Below are positions 23,881 through 33,813 of a stretch of 37,062 bases of DNA, one piece after another (position 1 is the first letter of the stretch; each line of letters starts with the position of its first letter). Source of the stretch: a virus. Taxonomy: Duplodnaviria > Heunggongvirae > Uroviricota > Caudoviricetes. Under the pieces are notes generated by a model that ran no database searches, was not told where the DNA came from, and was given only the letters and a program-made list of their open reading frames with translations. Made by a program: the position numbers and the translations under genes. The DNA is taken from the IMG/VR virus record IMGVR_UViG_2718218435_000004; one strand, written 5' to 3'.

Positions 23881-24053
23881 TGTCAGGAGTCCTGAATAGT
23901 GATTAGAGGAGTCACATGTCGGCATCAGTTTCCCGACGATACGCATCCTCCGCCATCAGTCCCGGATGGCTTATCACTGACACAACAGCACCTTAGCGAA
24001 TCGCGGGGCGCGACTCAGTAGCCTTGCCGTGTATTCATCACGGCGAGGTATTC
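23881..24053. promoter_or_regulatory. Divergent late promoter region between O and P (expected Ogr-dependent P_O / P_P)
   Basis: Intergenic region between divergently transcribed O and P, where P2 has its two late promoters. Contains dyads gtcgg-N10-ccgac (about 23918-23937) and ccgtg-N7-cacgg (about 24027-24043); no exact TGT-N12-ACA was found. Confidence 0.45.
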
Positions 24054-25826
24054 ATGACCATCACCACAGACACCACTCTTTTACACGACCCGCGTCGTCA
24101 GGCGGCGCTGCTGTACTGGCAGGGGTTTTCCGTGCCGCAGATTGCCGCCATGTTGCAGATGAAACGCCCGACGGTGCAGAGCTGGAAACAGCGCGACGGC
24201 TGGGACAGCGTTGCCCCCATCAGCCGTGTCGAAATGAGTCTGGAAGCGCGACTGACCCAGCTCATCATCAAACCGCAGAAAACCGGCGGTGACTTCAAGG
24301 AAATTGACCTGCTGGGACGCCAGATTGAACGACTGGCACGGGTAAACCGCTACAGTCAGACCGGCAACGAGGCAGACCTTAATCCGAACGTCGCTAACCG
24401 CAACAAAGGCGGGCGTCGCAAACCGAAAAAGAATTTTTTCAGTGACGAGGCCATCGAAAAGCTGGAGCAGATTTTCTTTGAGCAGTCTTTCGAATATCAG
24501 TTGCACTGGTATCACGCCGGGCTTGAGCACCGCATCCGCGATATCCTGAAATCCCGCCAGATTGGCGCGACGTTTTATTTTTCCCGCGAGGCGCTGCTGC
24601 GCGCCCTGAAAACCGGTCATAACCAGATTTTTCTGTCGGCCAGTAAAACGCAGGCGTATGTGTTCCGCGAATACATCATCGCCTTTGCCCGTCTGGTTGA
24701 CGTTGACCTGACCGGTGACCCGATTGTCCTGGGCAATAACGGCGCAAAACTAATTTTTCTCGGCACCAACTCCAACACCGCACAGAGCCATAACGGCGAC
24801 CTGTACGTCGACGAGATTTTCTGGATCCCGAATTTTCAGGTACTGCGTAAGGTGGCATCAGGTATGGCCTCACAGAGTCACCTGCGCTCGACCTATTTCT
24901 CCACCCCGTCCACGCTGGCGCACGACGCCTACCCGTTCTGGTCGGGTGAACTGTTTAACCGGGGACGCGCCAGCGCCGCCGAACGCGTGGAAATCGACGT
25001 CAGTCATAACGCCCTTGCCGGTGGGCTTCTCTGTGCGGACGGCCAGTGGCGGCAGATTGTCACCATTGAGGACGCCCTGAAAGGCGGCTGCACGCTGTTC
25101 GACATTGAGCAGCTCAAACGCGAAAACAGCGCCGACGATTTTAAAAACCTGTTCATGTGTGAATTTGTTGACGACAAGGCGTCGGTATTCCCGTTCGAGG
25201 AGCTGCAACGCTGCATGGTCGACACGCTGGAAGAATGGGAAGACTATGCGCCGTTTGCCGCCAATCCGTTCGGCTCCCGCCCGGTATGGATTGGTTACGA
25301 CCCGTCACACCGTGGCGACAGCGCCGGATGCGTGGTGCTGGCACCGCCGGTGGTGGCCGGAGGTAAATTCAGAATACTTGAGCGTCACCAGTGGAAAGGC
25401 ATGGACTTTGCCACTCAGGCGGAATCCATCCGCAAACTCACCGAAAAATACAACGTCGAATACATCGGAATTGATGCCACCGGCCTCGGTGTCGGCGTGT
25501 TCCAGCTCGTGCGCTCGTTCTATCCCGCCGCGCGCGATATCCGCTACACGCCGGAAATGAAAACCGCAATGGTGCTCAAGGCAAAAGACGTCATCCGCCG
25601 TGGCTGTCTGGAATATGACGTCAGCGCCACCGACATCACCAGCTCGTTCATGGCTATCCGCAAGACCATGACCAGCAGCGGACGCAGCGCCACCTATGAG
25701 GCCAGCCGTAGCGAGGAAGCCAGCCACGCCGACCTCGCCTGGGCGACCATGCACGCCCTGTTAAATGAGCCACTCACCGCCGGTATCAGCACCCCGCTGA
25801 CATCCACCATTCTGGAGTTTTACTGA
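24054..25826 (+). CDS. P: Terminase large subunit P (ATPase/endonuclease)
   Basis: The ORF-track ORF begins at a TTG; the internal ATG with an AGG Shine-Dalgarno gives MTITTDTTLLHDPRRQAALLYWQGFSVPQIAAM..., 590 aa, matching P2 gpP. Confidence 0.9.
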   Translation: MTITTDTTLLHDPRRQAALLYWQGFSVPQIAAMLQMKRPTVQSWKQRDGWDSVAPISRVEMSLEARLTQLIIKPQKTGGDFKEIDLLGRQIERLARVNRYSQTGNEADLNPNVANRNKGGRRKPKKNFFSDEAIEKLEQIFFEQSFEYQLHWYHAGLEHRIRDILKSRQIGATFYFSREALLRALKTGHNQIFLSASKTQAYVFREYIIAFARLVDVDLTGDPIVLGNNGAKLIFLGTNSNTAQSHNGDLYVDEIFWIPNFQVLRKVASGMASQSHLRSTYFSTPSTLAHDAYPFWSGELFNRGRASAAERVEIDVSHNALAGGLLCADGQWRQIVTIEDALKGGCTLFDIEQLKRENSADDFKNLFMCEFVDDKASVFPFEELQRCMVDTLEEWEDYAPFAANPFGSRPVWIGYDPSHRGDSAGCVVLAPPVVAGGKFRILERHQWKGMDFATQAESIRKLTEKYNVEYIGIDATGLGVGVFQLVRSFYPAARDIRYTPEMKTAMVLKAKDVIRRGCLEYDVSATDITSSFMAIRKTMTSSGRSATYEASRSEEASHADLAWATMHALLNEPLTAGISTPLTSTILEFY

Positions 25827-26860
25827 TGAGCAAGAAAAAAGGGAAAACACCGCAACCTGCGGCAAAAAAAATGACCGCCAGCGCCCCGAAAATGGAGGCA
25901 TTCACCTTTGGTGAGCCGGTGCCGGTACTCGACCGCCGTGACATTCTGGATTACGTCGAGTGCATCAGTAACGGCAGATGGTATGAGCCACCAGTCAGCT
26001 TTACCGGTCTGGCAAAAAGCCTGCGTGCTGCCGTGCATCACAGCTCACCGATTTACGTCAAACGTAACATTCTGGCCTCAACGTTTATCCCACACCCGTG
26101 GCTTTCTCAGCAGGATTTCAGCCGCTTTGTGCTGGATTTTCTGGTATTCGGTAATGCGTTTCTGGAAAAGCGTTACAGCACCACCGGTAAGGTCATCAGA
26201 CTGGAAACCTCACCGGCAAAATATACCCGCCGTGGCGTGGAGGAGGATGTTTACTGGTGGGTGCCGTCCTTCAACGAGCCGACACCTTTCGCGCCCGGCT
26301 CCGTGTTTCACCTGCTGGAGCCGGATATTAATCAGGAGCTGTACGGTCTGCCGGAATATCTCAGCGCCCTTAACTCTGCCTGGCTGAATGAGTCGGCCAC
26401 GCTGTTCCGCCGCAAGTATTACGAAAACGGCGCTCATGCCGGATATATCATGTACGTCACTGATGCCGTGCAGGATCGCAACGATATCGAAATGCTTCGC
26501 GAAAACATGGTGAAGTCGAAAGGCCGCAACAACTTTAAAAACCTGTTTCTCTATGCCCCGCAGGGGAAAGCTGACGGCATTAAAATTATCCCGCTCAGTG
26601 AAGTGGCAACGAAGGACGATTTTTTTAATATCAAAAAAGCCAGCGCCGCTGACCTGCTGGACGCGCACCGCATCCCCTTTCAGTTGATGGGCGGCAAGCC
26701 GGAGAACGTCGGGTCGCTGGGTGATATTGAGAAAGTAGCAAAGGTCTTTGTCCGCAATGAGCTTATCCCGTTACAGGACAGGATCCGCGAGATAAACGGC
26801 TGGCTCGGTCAGGAGGTCATCCGATTTAAAAACTACTCACTGGACACTGACAACGGCTGA
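25826..26860 (+). CDS. Q: Portal protein Q
   Basis: 344 aa, matches P2 gpQ; ATG overlaps the P stop (TGATG). Confidence 0.9.
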   Translation: MSKKKGKTPQPAAKKMTASAPKMEAFTFGEPVPVLDRRDILDYVECISNGRWYEPPVSFTGLAKSLRAAVHHSSPIYVKRNILASTFIPHPWLSQQDFSRFVLDFLVFGNAFLEKRYSTTGKVIRLETSPAKYTRRGVEEDVYWWVPSFNEPTPFAPGSVFHLLEPDINQELYGLPEYLSALNSAWLNESATLFRRKYYENGAHAGYIMYVTDAVQDRNDIEMLRENMVKSKGRNNFKNLFLYAPQGKADGIKIIPLSEVATKDDFFNIKKASAADLLDAHRIPFQLMGGKPENVGSLGDIEKVAKVFVRNELIPLQDRIREINGWLGQEVIRFKNYSLDTDNG

Positions 26861-26865
26861 ACATC

Positions 26866-26887
26866 GCCGCCTGCGGGCGGCTTTTTT
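26866..26887 (+). terminator. Rho-independent terminator downstream of Q
   Basis: gccgcc-tgcg-ggcggc hairpin followed by T6. Confidence 0.6.
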
Positions 26888-27029
26888 ACACCCCGTCATC
26901 ACGCCCTCACACGTTCGCCACTGTACAAAACACCCCGCAGACACACCAACGCCCCGGCAGGCCGACTAAACGCCATCACGACGCGCTCAGACGCTGAAAA
27001 AATAAAATCAGCACCACCGCCAGCGCGCA

Positions 27030-27048
27030 GTGCTTTCCCCGCCTCGCC
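27030..27048. other. cos site: 19-nt cohesive-end sequence of P2-type phages
   Basis: gtgctttccccgcctcgcc is the reverse complement of GGCGAGGCGGGGAAAGCAC, which I recall as the P2 cohesive end; it sits in the expected place next to Q. Confidence 0.7.
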
Positions 27049-27247
27049 CGCCCGCTTCATGGGTCGGTTTTGATGCAATTACATTAGTCCATCAGAGCCT
27101 CATGGATTACACCATACGAAAACATCCTCAACCATTGAACATAGATGCAAATCCATGCACCCTATAGATTCATATACCATCCCTGATTGCAGGAATGAAT
27201 AACACATGCGACAATAAGAGCATTTTTCATAAGAGTAACGGTGACAC

Positions 27248-28252
27248 ATGGATCAGAGAATCCTTGAACATGAAGCGATTAAACAACTTAGCAAAAAATC
27301 AGTGCGCAAGTTGTTTGGGGTTCACGATATCCCTAGAGCCAGTTCACCATTTCGCTATCCAGGAGGTAAAGACAAACTTGCCTCATTTCTCGCTATTTTT
27401 CTTGTACATAATAAGTTAAATGGTGGCCGGTTTATTGAACCATTTTGTGGTGGTGCTGGAGCATCACTTTCTTTACTATTGGGCGGATATGTAAAAGAGA
27501 TCCACTTAAATGATAAGAACTATGCTTTATTTTGCTTTTGGGATCAATTAATTAACAACACTGATAATTTATTGGATATGGTATATCAGAATATACCATG
27601 CATTGACGATTGGCATAAACAAAAGAAAATCTACCAAACGAGTATTATTGACCCCAATAAATACACCAAACTCGAATATGGTTTTAGTGTATTCTATTTA
27701 AACAGAACAAACAGATCTGGAGTACTAAGCGCTGGGCCAATTGGCGGTTTAGACCAGTCTGGAAAATATAAAATTGATTGCAGATACACTGTAAGTACGC
27801 TTATTAAAAAGCTCGAAAAAATAGCTAGCATGCGTGACTCTATATTCGTTTATAACGAGCACTGCATTGATTTTTTAAAACGTTTCAATAGTAAAGATAA
27901 CTATGATCATGATTTCGTTTATCTAGATCCTCCTTATGTTAAAGAGGGGCGCAACATTTATTCAAAAAACTTTTGCTTCGATGACACTCAGCATCGCGAG
28001 CTTAAGGATTACATAGCTGGTTATGCAAATCGTTGGTTAATTTCTTATGACGATCACCCTCTAGTGCATGAATTATACTCAAAACATGGCACAAGAGCCG
28101 TTGAGATAAGTTACGCCATGAATAAAGCAAAAGTTGGAAAAGAATTAATGATAGCGGATTCTCGCTTAAGAATGCCAGAATCATTATTCTCTGTTGATAT
28201 ATTAAAATCTGGCGAAATACCAATGAAGAAAAAAGTAGTTAAAATGGCCTGA
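27248..28252 (+). CDS. Dam-like (D12-class) N6-adenine DNA methyltransferase
   Basis: 334 aa with FRYPGGK near the N-terminus, the SAM-binding motif EPFCGGAGAS and the catalytic DPPY motif; AT-rich; lies where P2 has old/tin. Confidence 0.85.
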   Translation: MDQRILEHEAIKQLSKKSVRKLFGVHDIPRASSPFRYPGGKDKLASFLAIFLVHNKLNGGRFIEPFCGGAGASLSLLLGGYVKEIHLNDKNYALFCFWDQLINNTDNLLDMVYQNIPCIDDWHKQKKIYQTSIIDPNKYTKLEYGFSVFYLNRTNRSGVLSAGPIGGLDQSGKYKIDCRYTVSTLIKKLEKIASMRDSIFVYNEHCIDFLKRFNSKDNYDHDFVYLDPPYVKEGRNIYSKNFCFDDTQHRELKDYIAGYANRWLISYDDHPLVHELYSKHGTRAVEISYAMNKAKVGKELMIADSRLRMPESLFSVDILKSGEIPMKKKVVKMA

Positions 28253-28254
28253 TA

Positions 28255-29274
28255 TCAGGCCGCTTCTGCTTGTAATGTTTCAGTTGTAGAAATCACATAT
28301 TGTGAAATATCATTTATTTCATCTTTCCGTTCTATTAGTAGCCCTGGATCTGATACCAACAGTTCTAACCCTTTCTTAAAGCAAGTAGGTAACCGGAGTC
28401 TATGCAATACTGCGCCAAACTCCTCTGCGACTAGTGAAATATGGTCTTTCTTTATAGATTCATCATCACTCTCAAAATCAAAAGGTATAACAATAGCATC
28501 AGTTATTCTATATATTCTTTGCGCTAACCAGTGATTTTGTATGTTTGCAATATCCTCTTTTATTGCTTTTGAACGCCAATCTTGGCCGCTAGCAACTTGA
28601 GCAAAATAAATTTGCTTGCTTCCCGGATATGTATCGCGGGGATTATTATCTTTCCATGCAATCACATCAATACCAGCATCTTTATGAGGTCGTGTTTGCA
28701 AATAACGATTAACATCCTCAAATGGTCTAACCCTTCCTTCACCAATTAAATCAACAGCTCTAGTAAGAGCATCATAAAACTTTGAACTATCAGGTCTTGG
28801 CCAGCCGAATGAAATACTATGCCCCTGAACATAGCCAGCTAATGCAATTGTTGCAGCAATCTGTAATAAGTCTCGGTGTTTTCCTGTCGGCAAATCTACC
28901 CCATTAAATAGCCGTGATGCCGACATATGAGAAAAATACAAACAATATAAGTATATATGCTGATCTACGGTAAGTAATTCCAATGTTTCCTTTGCCAATT
29001 CCAAACATTGCGTTTCTTCATTAAAAATAAAAGGATAGCTATCCCCGAGTATATCCTTTCTTTGTTGATATTGTTCTAATAGTCTTTGTATTTCATTTTC
29101 GACTTCAGCATCTTCTTCGCCTATATCGGAAGATGTAAATGAATCTAAGTTCTCTAGAATATTCCTTAGTTCTGAAATTCGCATTGTAAAATATACATTT
29201 GATAAGCAAGATAACTCAAGCCAATCCAATTTGACTTGAATATGATGACTCTCTGGATAAGGTTGCAACTGCAT
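28255..29274 (-). CDS. Hypothetical 339-aa protein, second gene of a two-gene operon; possible nuclease-like partner (tentative)
   Basis: ATG 3 nt after the stop of the upstream ParB-like gene with a GAGGAA Shine-Dalgarno; AT-rich; convergent with the MTase, stops 2 nt apart. Segment HKDAGIDVIAWKD...IYFAQVASGQ loosely resembles Mrr-type PD-(D/E)xK motifs, but this is not established. Confidence 0.7.
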   Translation of the reverse strand: MQLQPYPESHHIQVKLDWLELSCLSNVYFTMRISELRNILENLDSFTSSDIGEEDAEVENEIQRLLEQYQQRKDILGDSYPFIFNEETQCLELAKETLELLTVDQHIYLYCLYFSHMSASRLFNGVDLPTGKHRDLLQIAATIALAGYVQGHSISFGWPRPDSSKFYDALTRAVDLIGEGRVRPFEDVNRYLQTRPHKDAGIDVIAWKDNNPRDTYPGSKQIYFAQVASGQDWRSKAIKEDIANIQNHWLAQRIYRITDAIVIPFDFESDDESIKKDHISLVAEEFGAVLHRLRLPTCFKKGLELLVSDPGLLIERKDEINDISQYVISTTETLQAEAA

Positions 29275-29277
29275 CTC

Positions 29278-30405
29278 TTATTCCTCAATGCTCTGCAATT
29301 GATATTGAACCTTAGATACCTTTCTCTTAAACTGTTCGATGTAGTTCTTCGTCGTATCGTCTAACGAATCTGTTCTATCTAAAACAGAAGATATAGTATC
29401 AAGTTGTTTGTTTATTTCCAAAAAAGCATCTTTAATGTGTTGAAGAGGGTCACCCGCTTGCTTATATAATTCAGAAAGACTTTCAACTCCAGACTTAAAA
29501 GCTTCATATGAAGCCTCATTCGCTAAAACCTCACCAAAATATTTCAAATCAGGATTTTGCGAAGAGATCAACGATGCTCTTTTATCTTTTTTATACCCAT
29601 AAAGACCGATCAGAACATCTCTGAGTTTATCAAGATTCCTTTGCGGTACAGGATTCTTTCTGAGTGTAATATTCCAATCTTTCTCCAATCCTAAAAAATC
29701 TTTATATTCAGTTCTATTCAAAGCCGTATACAAATGAGAAAAAGAAAATTTTGGTGACATTCTGTCGACATGAATATCATATATTTCTTGAGTTTTAGCC
29801 TGTTCAAGAACAAACATAGCACTAACTATAGAACGAACAGTATTGTTACTGTCACCAAGTTTTTTTGTTATATGTTCAATAGTGAGACCGTTATCTCTTT
29901 CACTTATAAACCATTTATATGCGAACTGTGCTTTAGCAAACGAATCCCATTTATGGGGACCATTAACATGTTTAAATCCAATAAATGAACGAGCTTCTGA
30001 CTCATCATTAACAAGATAAACAGCAACTTCCTTGAGGCTATCCAAAACCCAAGAATCTATATTTTTTGGAACGACAACTCGACATTTTTGTGCCAAGCCC
30101 GGTTCAGTAAGCAATTTGATGGCAGCTAAACGACGATTACCTTCTAAGACGACATACTTATCATCTTTTTTCATGACAATTAAAGGTTCAATCGACATAT
30201 ATCCATTTTCAGAAATGGATTTAATCAATTCTTCTAAATCTGCAGTATCAGATAATGCTTTAACCAACTCATATGAGTCAGCATTATCATTAAAGCTTTT
30301 CCCGTTATAAAGCCTTGGATTTCTAGCATCCAAGATTAACTCATCCGGGGAAATCATCTGTGTTTTGAGCGGTTCTAAGACAGTTTTTGGCATTTTATGC
30401 ACCAT
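29278..30405 (-). CDS. ParB/Srx N-terminal-domain protein (ParB-like nuclease/NTPase fold), first gene of the two-gene operon
   Basis: 375 aa; NPR box near the N-terminus (LILDARNPRLY) and SIEPLIVMKKDDKYVVLEGNRRLAAIKLL resembling the ParB GxRR arginine motif; AT-rich. The true start may be the first ATG or the ATG four codons downstream. Confidence 0.7.
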   Translation of the reverse strand: MVHKMPKTVLEPLKTQMISPDELILDARNPRLYNGKSFNDNADSYELVKALSDTADLEELIKSISENGYMSIEPLIVMKKDDKYVVLEGNRRLAAIKLLTEPGLAQKCRVVVPKNIDSWVLDSLKEVAVYLVNDESEARSFIGFKHVNGPHKWDSFAKAQFAYKWFISERDNGLTIEHITKKLGDSNNTVRSIVSAMFVLEQAKTQEIYDIHVDRMSPKFSFSHLYTALNRTEYKDFLGLEKDWNITLRKNPVPQRNLDKLRDVLIGLYGYKKDKRASLISSQNPDLKYFGEVLANEASYEAFKSGVESLSELYKQAGDPLQHIKDAFLEINKQLDTISSVLDRTDSLDDTTKNYIEQFKRKVSKVQYQLQSIEE

Positions 30406-30811: not shown

Positions 30812-31266
30812 TATCCAAGCCACCCGTTTTGCTGTGCACGCTCCATCTGTTCATCTGAATAGTTCCATGCTCCATCCGTGGCAACCATTGCCCCGCCAGA
30901 CATCCCCGTCTCTGGTTCATACATAACAGCAAGGCCGAGCTGATGCATAATTTCATGATTAATTCTGAATACCAGGCCACGCTCACTAAGTTCTTTCCAG
31001 TTCACAATCTCATATGCGCCTGTATTAAGCAGCTCAATACTTAGCAAGACATAGTCTTCCAGCCAGTCTGACAGGTCAGTAACATCTGTTATCCGGGCTT
31101 CAACCTTTCGCCCCGTATACACACCCTGCCCCCATTCATGCAAAATCAACGTGTCCCCGCGCTCATAATTACGGTCATTTTTCCGAAACTCTGCGCGTTT
31201 CTTTCCTTCCAGCACAAGGTCAAAATATTTTGCGTGCAGCTTTATCTCGTGAATTTTTGCCATCAT
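30811..31266 (-). CDS. Hypothetical protein with an N-terminal ASCH/DUF3850-like (PUA-fold) domain, immediately downstream of A
   Basis: Start ATGATG overlaps the A stop; N-terminal MAKIHEIKLHAKYFDLVLEGKKRAEFRKNDRNYERGDTLILHEW resembles ASCH/DUF3850 domains; C-terminal half unassigned. Confidence 0.6.
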   Translation of the reverse strand: MMAKIHEIKLHAKYFDLVLEGKKRAEFRKNDRNYERGDTLILHEWGQGVYTGRKVEARITDVTDLSDWLEDYVLLSIELLNTGAYEIVNWKELSERGLVFRINHEIMHQLGLAVMYEPETGMSGGAMVATDGAWNYSDEQMERAQQNGWLG

Positions 31267-33548
31267 GTCCACTCCATTACTGTTGAGAATCCCGGCCACT
31301 CATCAGCGACCGGATACGTGAATTTTTTCCCGTCATAATTTACAGTCGCACCACGCGCCAGCGCCTCAAGCTCCCATCGCTGCGGCCTGATACCGTTCTG
31401 AGCAAGGTCAACGCGGATACGGGTGATTTGCAATCGTTCAGACCTGGTCAGTCTGGCAGATGGTGCAATTTCATGCGGTTTTAACATGCTTCCGTTTCTT
31501 TGCTGACGGTTTGGTCTTCTCAGGCCGTGTTTTAATGCGCCCCTGAGCGCCCTCACGACCTCCGGGTCATTCCATTCGATAACACCATCATCAACCAGAT
31601 TTAGCACTGCTGCAGCGTGCTCAGAAGGTGTGGGAGCCGGTAACGAAGCATCACTACCGGTGAGCTTTCCACAGTTATTGACAGGACTCCGAGGCGCGGC
31701 GATGCCGCTTTTTAAAGTCAAAGGCTCAACGACCGGAACTTTCGGCACAATGCGCCAGTCCGTCGTTCTGGTGATATGAATATGACGCGCGCCGAGATGC
31801 GGCGCGTAAATACCGACCACTCTCTCGACTTCTTCCTCGTACTCGTTAACGTCACTCGACGGGCTACGGGCAACCCTGACAGTCTGACAATCGCGCGGGA
31901 CATTTGCCCCACCCTGCGCGCTGATATACAACGCAAAATCACCACTGTCTGCGGCAGCGCGAGCAGCCTCGACGCGTTCGTCAAACTCATCAGCAATACT
32001 GACGCCGCGAGGTAATTTGCGTAGTTCACGGTAAGCCCCCATTGTCGGCAGGCCAACCGTTTTAAATTGCGGAATGCGCCACGTTGACGCCCATGCGGTA
32101 ACAGCCGCGGCAGTGTCTTTCAGCGGCCTGCCGGTATCGTTATCGAGCTGACCATCCAGTGCATAGCCGTCGATGTTTTTTGAAATGTATTTCGCGATAT
32201 ACCCCGCAGCACCGCCCCGATTAAGGTGTTTTGCCTGAAAACGGTTTCGCGCGGCTCCTCTTTCGTCGCCATCCTCTTTGAGCGCATAGCGACGCATGAT
32301 TTCGATAATCTGGTTACGCTGGCGCGAATTACAAAAAAGCATCATATGCCAGTGCGGCGTTCCGTCGTGGTGTGGCTCGACGACACGCAAACCGTAGACC
32401 TGTAAATCATTATCCTTGAATGCCGTGCGCATCAGGCTCCAGATACGGCAGAGATAACGCTGCGCATCCTTTGGATTAAATGCCTCATCGTTCCAGCCGT
32501 GATTAAGCTGCACGGTTTTACTTTCGCCTTTTCCTACCTGACGTGTCGGGTGATACTTTGACGGCGCGGTCAGCGTGATAAACATCCCCACATCACCCTC
32601 TGCAGCGGCGTAACGCTCAATACCGGCAATGGTGTTCATCAGCTCCATCCGGCGAATTTCAGGATTAGAAATACTGCCCATCACCTTACTGATAAGGTCG
32701 ATGCGCTCGCCGGTTTCCCTGTTTTCAAGGTCACACGATTTAAGAAATTCCAGATTTGCCTGGCGGCGCGCACGCACATCACGAATGGCATGTTTACTGG
32801 CATAAGGTGAACGGTCTTTATTGACCTCCCCGACAGCAATCAGTAACGCCTCATGCCAGCGCATACGCTGGCCTTTAAGCTGACTAATCCACCACTCATC
32901 GTTAAACAGGCGGGCAATGGCAGAATATGCCTGCCTCGTGGTCATCTGCCCTTTACGGTATTTTCTCCAGTACAGCGGGGAAATATTGAAAGCACGTGCA
33001 GCGCCAGCAACATGACCATACAGGTGAGCCTGCGCCTCATCCGTAAACAGCGATTCTTTTTCGCCATGGGCATCCACCCAGGCATCGCAGAGTTCCTCAT
33101 ACATCATGAAAAGCTGCGATGAGATACGGGCGGCAAACTTTTTCAGCTCCTTGTCATTCATTCCCGGCAGGCGCGCATAGTGGTCACGCTCTGCCAGAAA
33201 CAGCAACGACGCGTCGGTGTTCATTTCATGGCGCTGATTCACACGCTCAATGCGCGGCCATAAACGACGCTGAAAAGTGGATGTGAGGAAATAAAACCCG
33301 TGCACCGGGCTTTTATTGCGCCGGATGTAGTCATAGCGTGAAGTAAACAGCGAGCGCAAAAAGTAAGGCAGGCGGTTAATCGTGGATAAAACACCTTGCA
33401 CCTGACGCATCTCATCACGTGTAAGGGGTCTTTCGCGCCCGACGGCCTCGCGTGGCGCGTTCCATGCATAAGCACCGGTAAACATCTTACCGGTGCCTGC
33501 GGCAAATGCTGACGGAGGGACAAAACGCCCGGAGGCTTTAACGGCCAT
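31263..33548 (-). CDS. A: Replication initiation protein A (rolling-circle nicking endonuclease)
   Basis: Internal start MAVKASGRFVPPSAFAAGTGKMFTGAYAWNAPREAV... gives 761 aa, matching P2 gpA. Confidence 0.9.
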   Translation of the reverse strand: MAVKASGRFVPPSAFAAGTGKMFTGAYAWNAPREAVGRERPLTRDEMRQVQGVLSTINRLPYFLRSLFTSRYDYIRRNKSPVHGFYFLTSTFQRRLWPRIERVNQRHEMNTDASLLFLAERDHYARLPGMNDKELKKFAARISSQLFMMYEELCDAWVDAHGEKESLFTDEAQAHLYGHVAGAARAFNISPLYWRKYRKGQMTTRQAYSAIARLFNDEWWISQLKGQRMRWHEALLIAVGEVNKDRSPYASKHAIRDVRARRQANLEFLKSCDLENRETGERIDLISKVMGSISNPEIRRMELMNTIAGIERYAAAEGDVGMFITLTAPSKYHPTRQVGKGESKTVQLNHGWNDEAFNPKDAQRYLCRIWSLMRTAFKDNDLQVYGLRVVEPHHDGTPHWHMMLFCNSRQRNQIIEIMRRYALKEDGDERGAARNRFQAKHLNRGGAAGYIAKYISKNIDGYALDGQLDNDTGRPLKDTAAAVTAWASTWRIPQFKTVGLPTMGAYRELRKLPRGVSIADEFDERVEAARAAADSGDFALYISAQGGANVPRDCQTVRVARSPSSDVNEYEEEVERVVGIYAPHLGARHIHITRTTDWRIVPKVPVVEPLTLKSGIAAPRSPVNNCGKLTGSDASLPAPTPSEHAAAVLNLVDDGVIEWNDPEVVRALRGALKHGLRRPNRQQRNGSMLKPHEIAPSARLTRSERLQITRIRVDLAQNGIRPQRWELEALARGATVNYDGKKFTYPVADEWPGFSTVMEWT

Positions 33549-33813
33549 ATGAGCCAAAAGCCTCTGAACAACGCCTGCTGAGTTGCTCAACCTGCGCGTT
33601 TAAATCAGCAAAAGACTTTGCGCTTCCGGTCAGAATATCGTGATGCATCAGGCCGGAAACGAGCTGGCTTAATTTCGGGTAATAACCAACCACCGCCAGC
33701 CATTCCTGACCGGCGTTTTTACCGCTTTCCGCTCTCTTTTTCTCGTGGAGAATAAACTGAAAGCTGTCACTGGTAACGACATAACGTTCGCCAATTTCAA
33801 TACGAATACTCAT
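33538..33813 (-). CDS. Small early protein (P2 orf83-like position)
   Basis: 91-aa ORF packed tightly between orf82-like and A. Confidence 0.6.
   Translation of the reverse strand: MSIRIEIGERYVVTSDSFQFILHEKKRAESGKNAGQEWLAVVGYYPKLSQLVSGLMHHDILTGSAKSFADLNAQVEQLSRRCSEAFGSYGR

Follow-up and report, generated by a model that had tools for sequence, protein, structure and literature searches.

The stretch analysed here (the window) comprises 37,062 nucleotides (nt) of a P2-like prophage of Escherichia coli (IMG/VR record IMGVR_UViG_2718218435_000004), in which a DNA methylase gene on the + strand and the gene of a 339-amino-acid (aa) protein, a predicted nuclease, on the - strand converge on a perfect 16-bp palindrome, GGCCTGATATCAGGCC (that is, ggcctgatatcaggcc), at positions 28246-28261. 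A comparison with related loci suggests that this palindrome is probably a compact bidirectional hairpin that defines the 3' ends of both transcripts, as a terminator, as a block to exonucleases, or as both. The inverted repeat itself is under purifying and compensatory selection at the nucleotide level, as codon invariance, compensatory changes and conservation of the junction together show, and we infer that termination or 3'-end definition is the function selected for.

Both open reading frames (ORFs) end within the palindrome, exactly as the initial annotation had described. The TGA stop of the methylase ORF (27248-28252, + strand) occupies 28250-28252, the TGA stop of the 339-aa ORF (28255-29274, - strand) appears as TCA at 28255-28257 on the + strand, and the two are separated by 2 nt, the TA at 28253-28254. 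The left arm consists of the final codons of the methylase gene (ATG GCC TGA), and the right arm consists of the final codons of the 339-aa gene (GCG GCC TGA). The hairpin core encoded by 28246-28261 has the stem GGCCUG/CAGGCC and the loop AUAU and is the same on both strands. From the alignment and the pair counts, the conserved arm pair extends to (C/T)GGCC plus stop and stop plus GGCCG at 28245-28262; the outer pair, 28245/28262, is C-G in the relatives, whereas the window has U.G (+ strand) and A.C (- strand) there.

The palindrome is the only perfect one of at least 16 bp in the whole window, and by count alone it is not significant: the chance expectation is a mean of 0.66 per window, and 48% of first-order Markov shuffles contain at least one. 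Its significance derives from its position, arms and pairing, which are kept across related loci, together with the codon invariance and the compensatory changes. Palindromes of 14-bp size also occur at the chance rate (two observed versus 2.6 expected). A second palindrome, GCTTCATATGAAGC, of 14 bp at 29501-29514, is reported inside the neighbouring gene of a protein with a ParB N-terminal domain (ParB_N).

Convergent loci with non-overlapping stops are restricted to one gammaproteobacterial clade, the members of which include Escherichia, Salmonella, Pantoea, a Serratia-like locus, Cronobacter-like loci, Aeromonas, Klebsiella, Dickeya, Erwinia, Proteus, Vibrio and Photobacterium. From this clade, 22 distinct convergent junctions were compared, with 339-aa proteins that are 47-100% identical to that of the window. 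All 22 follow the pattern C[G/A]GCC-stop-(0-6 nt)-stop-GG[C/T]CG or, with the codons marked, ...AA(A/G)-(A/T)C(G/A)-GCC-stop-(0-6 nt)-stop-GGC-(C/T)GC..., and the arms are kept while protein identity in the flanking coding sequence has dropped to 47-88%. The spacers between the stops measure 0, 1, 2, 3, 5 or 6 nt, and the stop pairs TGA/TGA, TAA/TAA and TAG/TAG are all seen. In the closest variant, GGCCTAATATTAGGCC (83% DNA identity), both stops have changed from TGA to TAA and the palindrome is still perfect, and in the Pantoea junction, GGCCTGAAATCAGGCC, the centre is asymmetric and the arms are intact. The CGGCC arms never vary among the enterobacterial and aeromonad loci, and covariation is seen only in loci of the Vibrio type: four Vibrio/Photobacterium loci carry CAGCC-TAG...CTA-GGCTG, which corresponds to a double change from G-C to A-U, and the spacers of two of these four, caaag and gaaac, add one C-G or G-C pair.

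Folding and pair counts were performed on 18 of the distinct junctions. All of them form a stem of 6-9 bp with a loop of 3-4 nt on both strands, with energies of -9.2 to -14.4 kcal/mol. The hairpin of the window has an energy of -11.6 kcal/mol on either strand (z = -3.5 and -4.4), and its stem of 6 bp (7 with the U.G pair) and loop of 4 nt have the dimensions of an intrinsic terminator, for which a GC-rich stem of about 5-14 bp and a loop of 3-8 nt are expected. In the alignment, 95.9% of the cells are paired, compared with 7-48% in slid controls, and four of the nine pairs change on both sides. None of 500 shuffles reaches the observed covariation score, that is, the pairs are maintained by compensatory changes above the controls, in a set of sequences that are kin by descent and in which the A-U for G-C change is probably one event common to the Vibrio-type loci. 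Strict covariation of the two stop codons was considered as well and holds only in part (11/18 pairs match, with 7.0 expected from the stop frequencies), so there is little constraint on the inner stem positions, and what stays constant is a 6-bp core stem, CGGCCU/AGGCCG. Rfam holds no known RNA family at the site.

Codon alignments of the methylase, nuclease and ParB_N genes from 18 distinct loci reveal how unusual the gene ends are. The amino acid is invariant, with at least four possible codons, in 196 columns, and just one of these is invariant in its codon too, namely the terminal Ala of the methylase (GCC in 18/18 loci). The terminal Ala of the nuclease is likewise GCC in 18/18, in a column that lies outside the 196 owing to a one-residue gap. 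The penultimate codon is ACG or ATG in 16/18 methylase genes and GCG in 16/18 nuclease genes; the two loci that deviate are the Vibrio-type ones with the compensating change. The methylase tail varies in both length and sequence save for its last three residues, K-T-A, which are limited to the convergent clade; the co-directional methylases end in unrelated residues.

These codon data bear on the explanation that the palindrome has no present function, being either a by-product of coding, in that both proteins end in Ala-stop, or an inverted repeat left as a scar from inversion of the methylase gene. The chance expectation given above, the many distant nuclease homologues that end in Ala and a convergent arrangement that is derived from a co-directional one would all fit such an origin. 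However, the distant homologues ending in Ala use GCT, GCA or GCG, whereas the terminal GCC at the junction is invariant on both sides and the other 195 columns all vary in codon. The tail of the methylase gene is variable except in its last three codons, and the double changes in the arms are compensatory. The explanation is largely refuted by the codon data and is very unlikely.

In the initial annotation, a protein binding or recognition site was offered as another possible role of the palindrome, a proposal that the comparison disfavours. At the DNA level, such a site could serve the ParB_N protein in the manner of parS, could be an operator, or could be what the methylase or nuclease recognises, with GATATC, the central hexamer, as one candidate. 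The palindrome resembles parS and C-box palindromes in that it is a perfect 16-bp palindrome beside a ParB-family gene in a restriction-modification-like cassette, its CGGCC arms do not vary among the enterobacterial and aeromonad loci, and GATATC is enriched in the window (17 occurrences versus 7.3 expected, with 0/100 shuffles reaching 17). In contrast to parS and C-box sites, the spacing is variable, the centre is not conserved, a C-protein gene is missing from the cassette, and the location is at 3' ends rather than at promoters. An arm spacing that ranges over 0-6 nt alters the phase of the helix, which a fixed dimer site could not accommodate, and the arms of the Vibrio-type loci change with the pairing preserved. 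The motif occurs once per locus, always at the junction, in the 31 loci scanned, in which no second copy is present at promoters, and its GGCC offers no adenine to an N6-adenine methylase. A stem-loop is favoured over a dimeric protein site because the spacing varies, the centre is free, and the arms change only where pairing is kept. A DNA-level site is accordingly improbable as an explanation. Among its particular forms, a parS-like site for the ParB_N protein is rejected on the variable spacing and single copy. A palindromic binding site of ParB-parS or operator type would have a fixed half-site spacing and conserved base contacts, unlike spacers of 0-6 nt around a centre that is not conserved. 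A dispersed or REP-like (repetitive extragenic palindromic) repeat is rejected on the single motif per locus.

An EcoRV-type GATATC as the target of the cassette enzymes is rejected as well, as the hexamer is lost in close relatives: it is replaced by AATATT or GAAATC in relatives with methylases 89-93% identical to that of the window, and by AAAACT and others elsewhere. The codon pairs of E. coli include GAT-ATC, which matches the excess of GATATC in the window, and the excess is probably such a codon-pair effect. It is unlinked to the cassette because the copy at the junction is not conserved in the relatives.

Features beyond the stem differ between the strands. On the - strand, the stem is followed by AUUUUAACUACUUUUUU, and the transcript past the hairpin carries a U-rich tail, AUUUUAACUACUUUUUUCUUC (28226-28245), which arises from the part of the methylase gene that specifies its Lys-rich tail. 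UUUU adjoins the stem on this strand in 13/18 relatives, and the first 10 nt contain 6.4 U on average. Past the hairpin of the + strand lies a weak pyrimidine-rich tail, CUUCUGCUUG (28263-28272). A simple terminator scan flags the junction as terminator-like on both strands, and its position is that of a bidirectional terminator: a single stem-loop between convergent units, identical on both strands and kept in place in 22 junctions.

In the proposed mechanism, the palindrome would be transcribed into a short, GC-rich stem-loop in the RNA, formed from the last two codons and the stop of each gene. Being palindromic, it would place the same hairpin at the 3' end of the methylase transcript (+ strand) and at that of the ParB_N-nuclease operon (- strand), the latter possibly including read-through from the P2 early operon. 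The hairpin and the UUUU that follows could act as an intrinsic-type terminator on the - strand, whereas on the + strand the hairpin may serve as a pause or collision site or as a weak terminator; on both strands, it could form a barrier to 3' exonucleases. Each transcription unit would then be kept from running antisense through its partner. Such insulation would matter for a toxic nuclease and a protective methylase packed without intergenic space in a prophage hotspot. The earlier suggestion of a shared bidirectional terminator or RNA structure is borne out as regards the structure, which is conserved and covarying with a variable loop and frozen synonymous sites, whereas termination is plausible, with a U-tail that is weak on the + strand.

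Several observations weigh against a bidirectional 3'-end-defining hairpin. The U-tract of the - strand is short (4 U and then A) and reads UCUU or UCCU in 5/18 relatives, and the + strand has a mean of 4.6 U in 10 nt over the 18 relatives, with no canonical U-tract. The counts of the terminator scan are near chance over most of the window, which makes the flags at the junction weak evidence. A ribosome terminating at stops within the stem would melt or occlude the hairpin and could reduce termination of translated transcripts. The compensatory changes would keep a DNA cruciform as well as an RNA hairpin, and the G.U wobbles are evenly divided between the strands and do not separate RNA from DNA; an asymmetry of wobbles as a pointer to an RNA hairpin or to the functional strand was rejected on this symmetry. 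Finally, the conserved hairpin is absent from the independent convergent versions of the alphaproteobacteria (L057, L061, L083, L125 and others), in which the stops overlap by 4 nt (CTAA, TTAA or CTAG) or the gene ends overlap by 13-38 nt. With overlapping stops and no hairpin, these loci were rejected as an independent replicate, and they indicate that the element is not essential to the system and represents a clade-specific solution.

The main rival is a hairpin that acts purely as a stabiliser of mRNA 3' ends, with termination occurring elsewhere (for example, by Rho on untranslated antisense RNA) and exonucleases trimming back to the stem, such that the hairpin sets the half-life of the transcripts and the methylase-to-nuclease ratio. 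The stem-loop is stable on both strands and the U-tracts are weak, especially on the + strand, as this explanation would have it. Moreover, REP elements of E. coli are hairpins of 3' untranslated regions with a dual role as terminators and stabilisers, and those between convergent genes correlate with higher expression of both genes (bioRxiv 10.64898/2026.03.23.713779). Against a pure stabiliser, the conserved UUUU that adjoins the - strand stem in 13 of the 18 loci suggests at least some intrinsic termination. The two explanations are not separable by sequence, and a pure stabiliser is considered possible, at a clearly lower probability than a hairpin that also terminates. The junction resembles REP elements in being a palindromic hairpin at 3' ends, including those of convergent genes, and the same roles are proposed for it, namely less read-through and a block to decay; unlike REP elements, it is not dispersed but occurs once per locus, and it has neither the REP consensus nor an extragenic location.

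A translation-gated switch is a further, doubtful reading of the hairpin. In this case, a ribosome finishing either gene would melt the stem, so that termination or 3' protection tracks translation and sets the methylase-to-nuclease ratio, and the roughly 20-30 nt of complementary 3' ends of the two transcripts may pair and be processed.

A hairpin that defines 3' ends in both directions has precedents. Convergent genes of E. coli are reported to possess stem-loop-dependent bidirectional terminators, which are unlike classical intrinsic ones and operate via polymerase pausing and collision (bioRxiv 10.1101/2022.10.23.513370); bidirectional terminators between convergent E. coli genes are also attributed to Ju et al. 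2019, as cited in that preprint. The junction shares with the E. coli terminators a single stem-loop between convergent genes that serves both strands and does not need a canonical U-tract. The E. coli elements are described there as setting precise 3' boundaries and preventing read-through, and the junction may do the same. The junction differs from them in its lack of intergenic DNA: the stem consists of last codons and stops and is under coding constraint on both strands. Compensatory evolution of stems is outlined for intrinsic terminators (PMC5381666), and the junction resembles an intrinsic terminator in its GC-rich stem of 6-9 bp, its loop of 3-4 nt, its compensatory substitutions and the U-rich tail on the - strand; it departs from them in the short or weak U-tract, especially on the + strand, and in a hairpin that lies within translated sequence up to the stops. 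The element thus belongs to a well-known class, the bidirectional terminator or 3' hairpin, and needs no new principle. What is notable is that the hairpin consists of nothing but the final codons and stops of two genes, whose synonymous sites and C-terminal residues it visibly freezes.

The classical bidirectional terminator is exemplified by tonB-P14. Elsewhere in the window, AGCCCCTCAACTGAGGGGCT at 1110-1129 forms a hairpin with an 8-bp stem and T-rich tails on both strands and resembles this classical type.

If the hairpin defines the 3' ends, a mobile cassette of toxin/antidote type would still insulate opposing units without any intergenic DNA. The junction would also be a clear natural case of an RNA structure that simultaneously fixes the synonymous sites of two proteins and even their C-terminal residues. 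For annotation, conserved synonymous sites at gene ends may point to embedded terminators, and the arrangement could be of use in the design of compact convergent gene pairs.

The genes on either side of the junction belong to a larger unit. The methylase (334 aa; 27248-28252, + strand) is a D12-class (Dam-like) N6-adenine DNA methyltransferase (PF02086, 3.7e-21). For the 339-aa protein (28255-29274, - strand), a winged-helix plus PD-(D/E)xK restriction-endonuclease-like fold is predicted, and no PADLOC, Pfam or NCBIfam family was matched. The ParB_N protein (ParB_N, 4.4e-4) is encoded by a 375-aa ORF at 29278-30405 on the - strand; the mechanical ORF begins with the ATG at 30405, versus a RefSeq protein of 371 aa (29278-30393). 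In all loci with enough sequence, the 339-aa gene is immediately preceded on its own strand by the ParB_N gene.

A survey of the cassette covered 181 loci, from Gammaproteobacteria to Acidobacteria, and in nearly all of them a methylase adjoins the nuclease gene. A co-directional D12 methylase lies downstream in 35 loci, and 58 loci (duplicates counted) have a convergent one; no D12 methylase was found in the remaining 83 loci, and sampled loci of this last group carry a co-directional PF01555 N6_N4 methylase that overlaps the nuclease stop. The third gene, encoding the 339-aa protein without a family, is present in all loci examined. Together, the ParB_N, 339-aa and methylase genes make up a restriction-modification-like cassette of three genes, in which the methylase is interchangeable, rather than the modification/restriction pair that had been proposed from the window. 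Tight convergent packing, which had been called typical of such genes, is not typical of this family: most relatives are co-directional, in the order ParB-nuclease-methylase, from which the convergent order is derived.

The proposal that the modification and restriction genes have co-evolved is supported, with the restriction-endonuclease-like fold of the 339-aa protein resting on a model. The three proteins diverge in step within the clade that bears the hairpin (r = 0.93 for methylase and nuclease, and r = 0.97 for ParB_N protein and nuclease). This result also bears on the explanation that the palindrome marks a recombination boundary, where cassettes would trade their methylase and nuclease modules. 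A short conserved sequence does lie exactly at the junction of the modules, and the class of the methylase is swapped across the family (D12 versus PF01555). However, the co-divergence gives no sign of shuffling, and 16-18 bp is very short for homologous exchange. A module-exchange boundary is rejected on the co-divergence of the three proteins, and its probability is minimal.

For the gene context, the closest known system is the anti-phage system PD-lambda-5 (Vassallo et al. 2022, PMC9519451), to which the cassette is related and from which it is distinct. The cassette methylase matches the methyltransferase of that system, PD-Lambda-5_B, over its full length (PADLOC PDLC04018, 7e-94; residues 31-314 on profile positions 4-280 of 291), and the two systems share the same P2 hotspot. 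The match of the ParB_N protein to PD-Lambda-5_A (4.6e-22) covers the N-terminal 160 residues of the latter, and a second match is to PDC-M38A (5.9e-20). Unlike PD-lambda-5, the cassette has three genes instead of two and lacks a full-length PD-Lambda-5_A partner: of the PD-Lambda-5_A profiles, which have about 450-500 positions, the ParB_N protein covers the N-terminal third alone (150-240 residues). The coverage of the cassette by PADLOC is partial, with PD-Lambda-5_B in full, PD-Lambda-5_A at its N-terminus only and PDC-M38A by half. Being widespread and captured only in part by the definition of PD-lambda-5, the three-gene cassette merits its own description.

The hairpin-bearing cassette moves as a unit among different mobile contexts. 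In P2-like prophages it is found in the hotspot between gpA and portal, in Vibrio/Photobacterium prophages it adjoins an integrase and a CI repressor, in Klebsiella it adjoins a reverse-transcriptase gene, and in Dickeya it is near integrases. A co-directional relative (40%) adjoins TraG_N in Salmonella.

In the window, the junction region is identical to that of strain F11 and of avian pathogenic E. coli (APEC) strains; F11 (NZ_CP184143) and APEC E19035 (NZ_CP126926) carry this prophage. The terminase (24024-25826) and portal (25826-26860) genes lie on one side of the cassette, and the gene of the replication endonuclease gpA (31263-33590) lies on the other. The defence hotspot of P2 is located "between the replication endonuclease and portal protein" (Vassallo et al. 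2022, PMC9519451), and the cassette is therefore placed in this hotspot, since gpA and portal flank the locus. Directly after the portal gene, a strong terminator-like hairpin is present at 26866-26881 (GCCGCCTGCGGGCGGC and then TTTTTT). It falls at the beginning of a 387-nt non-coding stretch between the portal and methylase genes (26861-27247), which is where a P2-type cos site and the methylase promoter would be expected.

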